In this document: in pieces, positions 11,031-13,855 of the stretch
How the letters are laid out: each line of letters begins with the position of its first letter
How positions within the stretch are numbered: the stretch's first letter is position 1
NCBI RefSeq assembly: GCF_020831925.1
Contig: NZ_JAFIFQ010000005.1
Span: 30,541 to 94,540 of the forward strand
Direction of reading: 5' to 3'
From: Alkalimonas sp.
GTDB lineage: Bacteria; Pseudomonadota; Gammaproteobacteria; Enterobacterales; Alteromonadaceae
Length of the DNA: 64,000 nucleotides
Position numbers and translations under genes: made by a program
Notes under the pieces: generated by a model
Database searches by the model: none
The model's input: only the letters and a program-made list of their open reading frames with translations
What the model was told of the DNA's origin: nothing

Positions 11031-12674
11031 ATGGCAGCAAAAGAAGTTCGTTTTGGTGATGATGCCCGCAATAAAATGCTGAAAGGTGTCAATATTCTGG
11101 CCAATGCCGTTCGTGTCACTCTGGGTCCGAAAGGTCGCAATGTGATCCTGGATAAGTCCTTCGGTTCACCGCTGATCACCAAAGATGGTGTGTCAGTTGC
11201 CAAGGAAATCGAACTGGAAGACAAGTTCGAGAACATGGGCGCCCAGATGGTGAAAGAAGTTGCCTCTAAGGCCAACGACGAAGCCGGTGACGGCACCACC
11301 ACAGCCACTGTTTTGGCACAAAGCATCATCAACGAAGGTGTGAAAGCCGTTGCCGCTGGCATGAACCCAATGGATTTAAAGCGCGGTATCGACAAAGCCG
11401 TGATTGAAGCTGTTGCTGAGCTGAAAAACTTGTCACAACCTTGTGCTGACAGCAAATCAATCGCTCAGGTAGGTACTATTTCTGCCAACTCCGATGCGGA
11501 AATCGGCCAGATCATCGCCGATGCGATGGACAAAGTTGGTAAAGAAGGTGTGATCACAGTTGAAGAAGGTCAGGCGCTGGCCAACGAGCTGGACGTGGTT
11601 GAAGGTATGCAGTTTGACCGTGGCTACCTGTCACCTTACTTCATCAACAACCAGGAAGCCGGCCAGGTTGAGCTGGAAAGCCCGTTTATCCTGAATGTGG
11701 ACAAGAAAATCTCCAACATCCGCGAGCTGTTGCCGGTGCTGGAAGGTGTGGCCAAAGCAGGCAAGCCATTGCTGATCATCGCAGAAGACGTAGAAGGCGA
11801 AGCCTTAGCGACTCTGGTAGTGAACAACATGCGTGGCATCGTTAAAGTAGCCGCGGTGAAAGCACCTGGTTTCGGTGACCGCCGTAAAGCCATGTTGCAG
11901 GATATTGCGGTACTGACCAATGGTACTGTGATTTCTGAGGAAATCGGCCTGGAGCTGGAAAAAGCTACGCTGGAAGATCTGGGTACTGCCAAGCGCGTGG
12001 TACTGACCAAAGACAACACCACCATCATCGATGGTGCCGGTGACGAAGACGCCATTGCTGGCCGCGTCAAGCAAATTCGTCAGCAAATCGAAGAAGCGAC
12101 CTCTGATTACGACAAAGAAAAACTGCAAGAGCGTCTGGCCAAACTGGCTGGCGGTGTTGCCGTGATCAAAGTCGGTGCGTCGACTGAAATCGAAATGAAA
12201 GAGAAAAAAGCCCGCGTTGAAGACGCGCTGCACGCAACCCGTGCTGCCGTTGAAGAAGGCGTGGTACCTGGCGGTGGTGTAGCCCTGGTACGTGTTGCTG
12301 CCAAGCTGGCTGGCCTGACTGCAGAAAATGAAGATCAGAACCACGGCATCAAAATCGCCCTGCGTGCGATGGAAGCGCCACTGCGTCAAATCGTGGCCAA
12401 CGCCGGTGAAGAGCCGTCAGTGGTTGTGAACAAAGTCAAAGATGGTTCTGGCAACTACGGCTACAACGCTGCCAATGAAACCTACGGCGACATGCTGGAA
12501 ATGGGTATCCTGGATCCAACCAAGGTAACCCGTTCTGCACTGCAGTTCGCAGCTTCTGTTGGCTCACTGATGATCACCACCGAAGCCATGGTGACTGAAG
12601 TACCAAAAGACGAAGCCGCTGCCCCAGATATGGGCGGCATGGGCGGAATGGGTGGCATGGGCGGCATGATGTGA
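11031..12674 (+). CDS. groEL: Chaperonin GroEL
   Basis: [22 protein letters not shown] tail; ATG at 11031 after GAGG. Confidence 0.99.
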
Positions 12675-12701
12675 TGCGCTCAGACCTCGTCTGAAACCCT
12701 G

Positions 12702-12729
12702 AAAACCCGGCCTTGGCGCCGGGTTTTTT
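12702..12729 (+). terminator. groEL terminator, probably bidirectional
   Basis: AAAACCCGG-ccttggcg-CCGGGTTTTTT. Confidence 0.85.
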
Positions 12730-12740
12730 ATTGGTACAAT

Positions 12741-13178
12741 TCAGTAGTGGGAGCTGTTAGCTGGTAGTACGGTGATAACTTGCCAGCGGCCGGTTTCACG
12801 AATAAAGAACACCGTTCGGTCACTGAGCGAAAACTCAAGCGTACTTACTTGATCATGGTTGATGGACATGGTTGGGTCGAATGGCGTCAATGCAACCACT
12901 AAGCCGTCAAATAGAGGATCTGTGATTGCCTCATCAAAGGCGACTTGTTCTTTTTGGTAGCGTTGTGCAAATTGCAACAGATCTTCGAAACTGTGCGTGC
13001 TTTGAATGGCATGCATCACAATTGCATCAATGTCATCTTGGCACTCAGAGTAAATAATAGATGCCCCCGCAAACATAGAGTCTTGCTGACTGCAAAGTTG
13101 TGAGGGAATAGGTGTATGGATAGATTCCGAAGCACTCAAAGTGAGCATGCAAACTAGAAACAACACTATCGCTTTCAT
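12741..13178 (-). CDS. Hypothetical exported protein
   Basis: 145 aa ORF with a signal-like N-terminus (MKAIVLFLVCMLTLSA); ATGA overlap with the upstream ORF; no recognised family. Confidence 0.65.
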   Translation of the reverse strand: MKAIVLFLVCMLTLSASESIHTPIPSQLCSQQDSMFAGASIIYSECQDDIDAIVMHAIQSTHSFEDLLQFAQRYQKEQVAFDEAITDPLFDGLVVALTPFDPTMSINHDQVSTLEFSLSDRTVFFIRETGRWQVITVLPANSSHY

Positions 13179-13693
13179 AAAAACCCTGCCCTCTCAAGAC
13201 GCCTGACCATTTGAGTTTCATGAGCATTTCGCCAAAAGTCAAAGCTACGAGGCTCAGACATTAACTCAAGCATAACACCAGTCACGTTTGTCATGGTTTT
13301 TAGCGATAAGTGTGTGGCAAAGTATTGATTTGCACGTCCCAAACTTCTTGTCGCAGCACCAGCGCGGCCAGGCATATTTTGGCTGCCTTGCTCTAACACT
13401 TTGCCTACTGTGTCCATTTCAAATCCAGCTGGATCAGCGACTGCTTCTGCAATCTTATGTAAATTCTCTTCAAGGCATACAATCCTGATGTCATCCATAA
13501 GGTGCGTTCGTATCATAATAGCCATAGCTTTGGATCGGAGTATATTGCGGATAGTTCCAAGGGAAAGTTCATTATCGGAAAAGAAGTTATAAAACATGGC
13601 TACTTCAACACGTTCCATCACCGCAGAACAGTGATTTTCTAACAGCCGCCCCCGTATGTTAAGGAGTTTGCTTTTTGCTTTAGTTATATTCAT
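13175..13693 (-). CDS. Hypothetical cytoplasmic protein
   Basis: About 172 aa from ATG 13693, which lies downstream of the consensus promoter (ORF track starts at 13717); no recognised family. Confidence 0.65.
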   Translation of the reverse strand: MNITKAKSKLLNIRGRLLENHCSAVMERVEVAMFYNFFSDNELSLGTIRNILRSKAMAIMIRTHLMDDIRIVCLEENLHKIAEAVADPAGFEMDTVGKVLEQGSQNMPGRAGAATRSLGRANQYFATHLSLKTMTNVTGVMLELMSEPRSFDFWRNAHETQMVRRLERAGFL

Positions 13694-13721
13694 AAACTTA
13701 ATTCCATTTAAAAACATGAAA

Positions 13722-13749
13722 ATTATATATGTTGTTATTTTTATGTCAA
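13722..13749 (-). promoter_or_regulatory. Consensus sigma70 promoter for the two-gene cassette
   Basis: Minus strand TTGACA-N16-TATAAT. Confidence 0.8.
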
Positions 13750-13764
13750 TAAAATATCCCTTGC

Positions 13765-13855
13765 TCGGAACTGCGGCATGAACATTACCCTGCTTACGAT
13801 GGAGGCAGCACTACGTCAAATCGTGGCCAATGCCGGCCTTGGCGGCGGTTTTTTC
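13765..13855 (+). repeat. Degenerate direct repeat of groEL 12335-12406 fused to a copy of the groEL terminator (att-like remnant)
   Basis: 58/72 nt gap-free identity to groEL codons ~436-459 including a 17-bp perfect core CGTCAAATCGTGGCCAA, then CCGGCCTTGGCGGCGGTTTTTT matching 12707-12729. Confidence 0.9.

Follow-up and report, generated by a model that had tools for sequence, protein, structure and literature searches.

The window analysed here is a 64,000-nucleotide stretch of the genome of an Alkalimonas species (contig NZ_JAFIFQ010000005.1), in which groEL is followed by a small cassette of two orphan open reading frames (ORFs), o145 and o180, and, beyond the cassette, at positions 13765-13855, by a short segment that resembles an internal piece of groEL joined to part of the groEL terminator. 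With a probability that can be put at roughly 0.6, this segment is a non-functional scar, composed of a displaced 3' piece of a different groEL allele that is fused at a CCGG tetramer to one half of the ancestral groEL terminator. In three related species (G006, G004, and G002 of the comparison set below), the same slot still holds the 3' wreckage of a group II intron, which ends exactly at the start of a distal copy of the groEL 3' untranslated region (UTR) and terminator. The initial annotation of the window, made from its sequence alone, had ascribed the structure to an island that inserted into groEL by means of a tyrosine integrase and subsequently lost that enzyme; it is right in proposing displacement of the gene end by a variable insert, and wrong as to the agent.

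The window genome, designated G000, is a metagenome-assembled genome (MAG) of 134 contigs and 3.6 Mb that originates from a mixed-strain metagenome, and it forms part of a comparison set of eight Alkalimonas species, G000 to G007. The features on which the argument depends are the following:

groEL, 11031-12674, plus strand: 547 codons with stop codon TGA in the ORF list; 78% nucleotide identity to E. coli groL
Source segment of the fragment within groEL, 12335-12406, plus strand: codons 436-459
Proximal groEL 3'UTR and intrinsic terminator, 12675-12735, plus strand: hairpin at 12701-12728
groEL pseudo-fragment, 13765-13836, plus strand: codons 436'-459'
Half terminator, 13833-13855, plus strand: CCGGCCTTGGCGGCGGTTTTTTC, the right half of the ancestral groEL terminator, CCGG-fused to the fragment

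Aligned without gaps, positions 13765-13836 match groEL 12335-12406 at 58 of 72 nucleotides, with a reading frame that begins at 13766 and 12336, respectively, and with a perfect 17-bp run, CGTCAAATCGTGGCCAA, which is located at 12383-12399 within groEL. This match stands far above chance, since the next-best ungapped 72-mer between groEL and the remaining window, on both strands, reaches 42 of 72 and the binomial P for 58 of 72 is 4e-21. Directly behind the fragment, CCGGCCTTGGCGGCGGTTTTTTC matches the groEL terminator (12707-12729) at 20 of 23 positions, and the joint between fragment and terminator is equivalent to the loss of 304 bp (12407-12710) between two CCGG tetramers. The displaced piece stops at codon 459 and enters the terminator loop, and is not continuous to a stop codon. 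The alignment with its offset and frame, the 17-bp core, the near copy of the terminator, and the deletion-like joint had all been described in the initial annotation, and each was reproduced here. A dispersed source for the terminator copy, resembling repetitive extragenic palindromic (REP) elements, was ruled out, as the motif has no other occurrence in the 3.6-Mb genome.

The structure is also represented in public Logan contigs from three bioreactor-metagenome runs: positions 13372-14100 lie within one 2.4-kb contig and positions 12643-12815 within another, both with zero differences, and these contigs and the MAG probably derive from the same reads. An assembly artefact, which the initial annotation had raised as a possible refutation, is ruled out, as such contigs span the joint, and an orthologue of both fragment and joint is found in a second species, G001. 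In a separate observation, a low-depth Logan contig of run X3 (6.5x versus approximately 20x) joins position 12721 to 13847 and bypasses the entire cassette, which would reflect either a co-occurring relative with an empty site or a variant from which recombination between the terminator repeats has removed the cassette.

Comparison with groEL genes places the closest relatives of the fragment within the genus. Specifically, 58 of 72 positions are shared with the resident gene and likewise with the gene of G001, as compared to 42-51 of 72 with genes of other genera, and among 401 genomes of the family no donor groEL was found that is closer than Alkalimonas's own (81%). Within the 13 codons common to the G000 and G001 fragments, all four shared differences from groEL are synonymous (GAG, GCA, CTA, AAT) and all four private differences are nonsynonymous (Fisher p of about 0.01-0.03, n = 8 substitutions). 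Because the shared changes are all synonymous and the private changes all nonsynonymous, the fragment appears to have been part of a once-functional, different allele; that is, it would have diverged inside a working, slightly different groEL, with decay coming only later. The shared synonymous changes also speak against recent copying from the resident gene, in agreement with the initial annotation. Divergence between the G000 and G001 fragments has a neutral-like rate. The source segment itself, groEL 12335-12406, is the most conserved nucleotide stretch of the gene in the genus, with identities of 94-99% (six species) versus 85-97% elsewhere.

With regard to function, the proximal site displays the GC-rich hairpin and subsequent U-tract of a rho-independent terminator (-17.6 kcal/mol, z -3.45), and is predicted to be capable of acting bidirectionally because an A-run precedes the stem at its 5' side and a U-run comes after it. 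At the distal half terminator, a substitute hairpin can form in which the fragment core serves as the left arm (-15.6 kcal/mol, z -2.05), and it too is followed by a U-tract. The whole 96-nt fragment, however, folds no better than shuffled sequences (z -0.28), no plus-strand promoter was found upstream of it, and no Rfam match was found at its position. In the G001 orthologue neither the ATG nor the first 29 nt survive and the hairpin has degraded; six of the eight species lack the fragment. Judged by promoter, fold, and the shortened, degraded copy in G001, the segment thus has none of the attributes of a small RNA or a 3'UTR-derived regulator, and for the same reasons 13765-13855 is regarded as dead and non-functional. 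The window element is without evident function, and the present locus is inert, save possibly for a weak hairpin that still forms.

The groEL-downstream interval and its intron remnants

Across the genus, the interval downstream of groEL is empty in three species (G003, G005, and G007), as the initial annotation had anticipated for relatives, and contains the cassette in the other five. Apart from the window genome, the arrangements are as follows, where aer denotes an aer-like gene:

G005 and G003: groEL, UTR, terminator, aer; empty
G007: groEL, UTR, terminator, DUF3016 gene; empty and without aer
G006: UTR, terminator, o145, o180, 630 bp, second UTR and terminator (62 bp), aer
G004: o145, o180 stub, 625 bp, second UTR and terminator, DUF3016 gene
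G002: groEL with stop codon TAG, unrelated terminator, diverged o145 and o180, 74 bp, then the sole UTR and terminator
G001: o145, truncated o180, 3'-terminal 41 bp of the fragment derived from groEL, half terminator as in G000, aer

The form consisting of fragment and half terminator is present in two species, G000 and G001, and contigs from a sludge metatranscriptome add a further relative with a G006-like layout and a shorter spacer. In three of the four sister pairs (G001/G005, G004/G007, and G002/G003) the cassette is present in one member and absent in the other, and in the remaining pair G000 and G006 both bear the cassette, in different forms. The region between groEL and the ancestral 3'UTR and terminator has been shown in this manner to be a genus-wide hot spot.

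The repeats that flank the insert differ between these forms. In G006, G004, and G002 the flanking sequence is a UTR and terminator unit, the distal copy of which measures 60-62 bp and begins with the final stop-codon base, and only G000 and, in part, G001 have the 17-bp core on both sides of the insert. The distal terminator is syntenic with aer, as in the empty sites, and is the ancestral groEL terminator, so the old groEL end was displaced, as the initial annotation had also proposed. The related proposal that 12730-13765 is the residue of an island holds insofar as a variable insert lies between groEL-derived direct repeats; the integrase invoked as its agent does not.

Beyond the cassette, domains V-VI of a group II intron (RF00029) were detected in G006 (67 bits) and G004 (56 bits), and in both species the last intron base (...CUACCCGAC) directly abuts the distal UTR copy. 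G006 additionally keeps the C-terminal HNH of the intron protein, comprising its last approximately 45 codons (Pfam E=1.6e-11), which is 56% identical to the protein of the E. coli groEL intron and is followed by a small ORF before domain V. In G002, just the last 35 nt of domain VI are present (91% identity to E. coli), there is no proximal UTR copy, and the groEL stop codon is TAG, as intron invasion produces (PMC12584367); a 5' intron remnant was sought behind this stop codon and rejected, the sequence showing no similarity to 80 intron 5' ends. The 8-mer TTGCTCGG, which adjoins the fragment on its left in G000 (window 13754-13772), also occurs at the start of the domain VI remnant of G002 (locus L021, reverse-complemented, 3046-3060); this sharing is probably coincidental.

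The remnants of G006, G004, and G002 share 83-96% identity with complete introns at the groEL stop codon in E. coli, Alteromonas, and Pseudoalteromonas, with the G004 remnant being 93% identical to the intron of E. coli LST200A and the G006 remnant 96% identical to an Alteromonas groEL intron. On the strength of this similarity, they can be assigned to the known family of groEL stop-codon introns of class IIB1. Members of this family, described in Azotobacter vinelandii and E. coli KTE56, insert between bases 2 and 3 of the stop codon, thereby changing TAA to TAG, and retrohome at approximately 100% into a target of 35+20 nt (PMC12584367), and the 5' junction signature of groEL introns is found in at least 120 GTDB species. 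A complete example in E. coli LST200A reads groL...TA/GTGCG...ltrA-DUF2188 ORF-DV-DVI...CCCGAC/A, where DV and DVI are domains V and VI and slashes mark the junctions. In the Alkalimonas relatives the 3' junction is exact (...CCCGAC/A followed by the UTR), no 5' junction survives in the genus, and no Alkalimonas genome contains an intact groEL intron.

Exchange of the locus between species

In the species tree, identity over the flanking 10 kb amounts to 92% for G000/G006, 92% for G004/G007, and 96% for G001/G005; it is 87% between (G000, G006) and (G004, G007), 83% between (G001, G005) and the four species G000, G006, G004, and G007, and 74-77% between G002 or G003 and G000. Against this background, o145 is 96% identical between G006 and G004 (background 87%) and 91-93% between these two species and G001 (background 83%), the value for G001/G006 being 91%, while G000 and its sister G006 share 85% as compared to a genome background of 92%. 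Similarly, aer is 93% identical between G006 and G001 and 76% between G000 and G006. Along the locus, the G000/G006 identity profile runs from 92-98% in groEL through approximately 86% in the cassette to 50-82% in the aer block, with flanks at 93%. Two features delimit the right-hand part of this region:

aer-like PAS-HAMP-MCP gene, 14071-15648, plus strand: absent in G002, G004, and G007
Right edge of the divergent block, 15750-15760: G000/G006 identity rises from approximately 40-50% to 93-99%

The hyperdivergent aer block, which varies in presence and absence, spans window positions 13860-15760.

Exchange extends into groEL itself. Between G001 and G005, 25 groEL differences fall in nt 1-585, six in nt 586-1365, and 27 in nt 1383-1646, defining a mosaic breakpoint at nt 1366-1383; at diagnostic sites, G001 displays the states of the other clade and G005 those of the outgroup. 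As groEL of G001 is a mosaic with other-clade states 3' of the breakpoint, the island entered G001 along with groEL sequence of the donor, which makes up the 3' end of the gene starting near nt 1377. The crossover is located in the most conserved groEL segment of the genus, which is also the source of the fragment. The groEL 3' end of G000, in turn, shows no tree conflict and is 96% identical to that of G006, like the remaining gene. The suggestion of the initial annotation that the current groEL 3' end is element-derived is therefore borne out in G001, where the end is donor-derived, and finds no sign in the window genome. Taken together, the cassette, aer, and groEL 3' end yield trees that are at odds with that of the species, and it has thereby been shown that the island and its flanks pass from one species to another through homologous recombination, for which conserved groEL provides the anchor on the left. 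This process explains the observed pattern without a site-specific recombinase.

Formation of the scar and alternative explanations

In the preferred reconstruction, the ancestral arrangement would have been groEL-UTR-terminator-cassette-groEL'/intron/UTR-terminator, with groEL' extending from codon 436 or earlier to the stop codon. The lineage of G006, G004, G002, and the metatranscriptome relative would then have lost groEL' and the 5' part of the intron, by deletion from the cassette edge into the intron, while in the lineage of G000 and G001 a deletion would have removed groEL' from codon 460' onward, the intron, the UTR, and the terminator as far as CCGG in its stem. Formation of the scar would thus require no site-specific recombinase. 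In the relatives, the distal terminator is the 3' exon of the intron, and the corresponding 5' exon must have been a groEL coding end. A single ancestor with both groEL' and intron is favoured because both junction types occur on close cassette alleles (G001/G006, 91%).

Several observations weigh against this reconstruction. The window locus and genome contain no intron sequence (no match to RF00029) and neither intron junction, and the window contains no reverse transcriptase (RT)-maturase with HNH, such that the link between fragment and intron would follow from parsimony across species. Additionally, the intermediate, a cassette followed by groEL' and a full intron, occurs in no sampled genome, and a downstream groEL fragment is found in 0 of 80 intron-bearing groEL loci of other taxa, by which the idea that such a fragment is a usual companion of groEL introns was rejected. 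A simpler reading of G002 places the cassette within a gutted intron, with no groEL duplication, in which case the fragment would be a later, separate event. Lastly, the argument from synonymous and nonsynonymous changes stands on eight substitutions, and the shared changes are towards rare codons (CTA, AAT), unexpected in a groEL that functions.

Some of these same observations lend themselves to a different account, in which 72 nt were copied from the nearby groEL as filler, through replication template switching or microhomology-mediated repair, while the intron remnant and UTR were deleted and the ends rejoined at CCGG in the terminator loop, the fragment never having been part of a displaced gene end. 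The CCGG microhomology at the joint, the shortness of the fragment with both of its ends within groEL coding sequence, the ancestral state without groEL duplication suggested by G002, and the lack of a groEL fragment at any other intron-bearing groEL locus are all in keeping with such a patch. A fresh copy should, however, decay randomly, whereas each of the four oldest changes, those common to both fragments, falls at a third codon position and is synonymous. A complex event of multiple steps is also required, and this account is considered possible, though rather unlikely. A broader and still less probable scenario treats the stop-codon intron slot as a landing pad, with a dead intron capturing the cassette, duplication of the 3' exon restoring a groEL end free of the intron, the resulting repeats spreading the cassette, and the fragment persisting as a fossil of the 5' exon. 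The duplicated unit does begin at the stop codon and finish where the terminator U-tract does, matching exactly the span of the transcript's 3' exon, and the duplication may have proceeded via reverse transcription of terminated groEL mRNA; the groEL-derived repeats would let homologous recombination carry the cassette between species. It is also unlikely, and a shade more so, that the scar records the import of a foreign Alkalimonas groEL 3' end, terminator, cassette, and groEL' into an empty site, anchored in groEL and closed by an illegitimate join at CCGG in the resident terminator. Such an import fits the widespread exchange between species seen here, the CCGG microhomology, and the foreign-allele character of the fragment, but it presupposes a donor in which a groEL' fragment already lay behind the cassette, and so shifts the problem of origin without solving it; import is compatible with the preferred reading as the route by which the structure entered G000.

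The integrase mechanism of the initial annotation, according to which a tyrosine-integrase island at the 17-bp core replaced the groEL 3' end and later lost both its integrase and 304 bp, accommodates the direct repeats around variable cargo, the empty sites, the origin of the fragment from a different functional allele, the donor-derived groEL 3' end of G001 with its breakpoint adjoining the core, and a GC content that is lower in the insert (36-47%) than in groEL (53-56%). Nevertheless, no integrase or other recombinase was found in the five island variants, their flanks, or the metatranscriptome variant, and the window insert contains no integrase, transposase, phage, or integrative and conjugative element (ICE) genes, its cargo being just the two genus-restricted orphans. 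The repeats in relatives consist of UTR and terminator rather than the core; the larger islands of relatives, in which an integrase with the same core might have been expected, hold group II intron remnants instead, and the only enzyme remnant in the island variants of G001, G002, G004, and G006 is the HNH fragment of the intron protein. A scan of IMG/VR for a phage attachment site (attP) with the core returned 11 exact 17-mers, none of them groEL-homologous, with plasmid and ICE collections lying outside the scan. As homologous recombination in the most conserved groEL segment fits the G001 breakpoint equally well, the integrase mechanism is regarded as improbable. Even less can be said for a functional element, be it a small RNA, a 30-codon peptide gene (ATG 13779), or a maintained terminator insulating aer: the possible hairpin with its U-tract and the ATG-initiated small frame speak for one, while the missing promoter, the unexceptional fold, the decayed G001 orthologue, the neutral-like divergence, and the absence from most species render it very improbable. 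Chance similarity or an assembly chimera, which a many-contig MAG from a mixed-strain metagenome might invite, is scarcely credible in view of the margin of the match over its background maximum, the public contigs across the joints, and the orthologous structure in the independent genome of G001.

Cassette contents, related systems, and further groEL introns

Upstream of groEL and within the insert, the following additional features were recorded:

groES, 10699-10992
o145, 12741-13178, minus strand: exported-looking orphan with a hydrophobic N-terminus and conserved Cys29 and Cys46
o180, 13175-13693, minus strand: orphan predicted to be all-helical; likely start ATG 13693, 172 aa
Sigma-70 consensus promoter, 13722-13749, minus strand: TTGACA-16-TATAAT, 12 of 12 positions

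The two cassette ORFs overlap, and the consensus promoter is predicted to drive them toward groEL, such that cassette and groEL are convergent and have a terminator in common; in G000, G006, and G002 the -35 box of this promoter lies right where cassette conservation ends. While o145 is intact in all five island-bearing species, with both cysteines invariant, o180 is shortened in G001, almost wholly lost from G004, and interrupted by an in-frame stop in G002, where the two proteins show 53% (o145) and 70% (o180) amino acid identity. Neither protein has a Pfam, NCBIfam, or PADLOC match, and a search of 5.8 billion proteins returned homologues in Alkalimonas only. AlphaFold models of the two are of low confidence (pLDDT, the per-residue confidence score, of 58 and 39), with Foldseek finding nothing in the PDB at E<0.001, and a scan of JGI metagenome contigs with an o145 profile revealed no further island variants.

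Three known systems invite comparison. One of these is the insertion of phage 21 and of e14 at the 3' end of icd, where the element brings a substitute 3' end and the original is displaced as a pseudo-fragment. As in that system, the housekeeping gene in the window is intact and a diverged partial 3' copy with allele-like differences is found beyond an insert; unlike it, the locus lacks genes for an integrase, an excisionase, or a prophage, the piece that was displaced comes from within the gene (codons 436-459) and stops short of its end, and the repeat in relatives is UTR and terminator. Islets that move between core genes by homologous recombination, together with homology-facilitated illegitimate recombination of the type described by de Vries and Wackernagel, are similar in the presence and absence of the insert within three sister pairs, the conflict of cassette and aer trees with the species tree, the sharp identity breakpoints in groEL and at approximately 15760, and the microhomology joint; they differ in that the anchoring repeats here derive from the 3' end of the flanking gene and the 3' exon of an intron. 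With the groEL IIB1 introns themselves (Avi.groEL and EcKTE56.groEL), the remnants of G006, G004, and G002 share domains V-VI, the 3' splice junction between stop-codon positions 2 and 3, and the order of an HNH-ending RT and a small extra ORF before domain V. In contrast to these introns, the window genome has no intron sequence, the Alkalimonas copies are all gutted, with no 5' end, domains I-IV, or RT domain, and their slot is filled by an orphan cassette and an extra copy of the 3' exon.

The comparison corrects a plausible integrase mechanism and links an unusual groEL pseudo-fragment with a recently described family of highly mobile introns, whose target is an essential gene's stop codon. 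The Alkalimonas series can be viewed as the fate of dead groEL introns, including gutting, the arrival of cargo in the slot, duplication of the 3' exon, and the swapping of blocks between species, and as such it provides useful natural history for group II intron loss and for hot spots beside core genes. This genus-wide series is more interesting than the scar in the window, and does not constitute a new kind of system.

The survey of groEL introns yielded several further observations. An exact signature of groEL end and intron 5' end is found in MAGs labelled Acidobacteriaceae, Planctomycetaceae, Gastranaerophilales, Alistipes, Pirellula, Coriobacteriaceae, Butyrivibrio, and Elusimicrobiaceae (loci L038, L051, L054, L055, L076, L079, L084, and L103); as the family has been described as proteobacterial, its occurrence in non-proteobacterial MAGs reflects either a wider host range or bin contamination. 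The extra ORF between the RT gene and domain V encodes DUF2188 in E. coli LST200A (L028, 4237-4461), and its place is taken in the A. amylolytica remnant (L015, 2854-3072, minus strand) by an unrelated 72-aa ORF with no family match. Finally, Zobellella iuensis (NZ_JAERTZ010000002.1, L098) carries, at 2121-7774 in groEL orientation, two head-to-tail groEL introns of approximately 2.83 kb each that are 94% identical, the second copy starting with ATGCGAC right behind the ...CCCGAC of the first; tandem homing may be allowed by the resemblance of the intron 5' end, GTGCG, to the start of the 3' exon, ATGCG.

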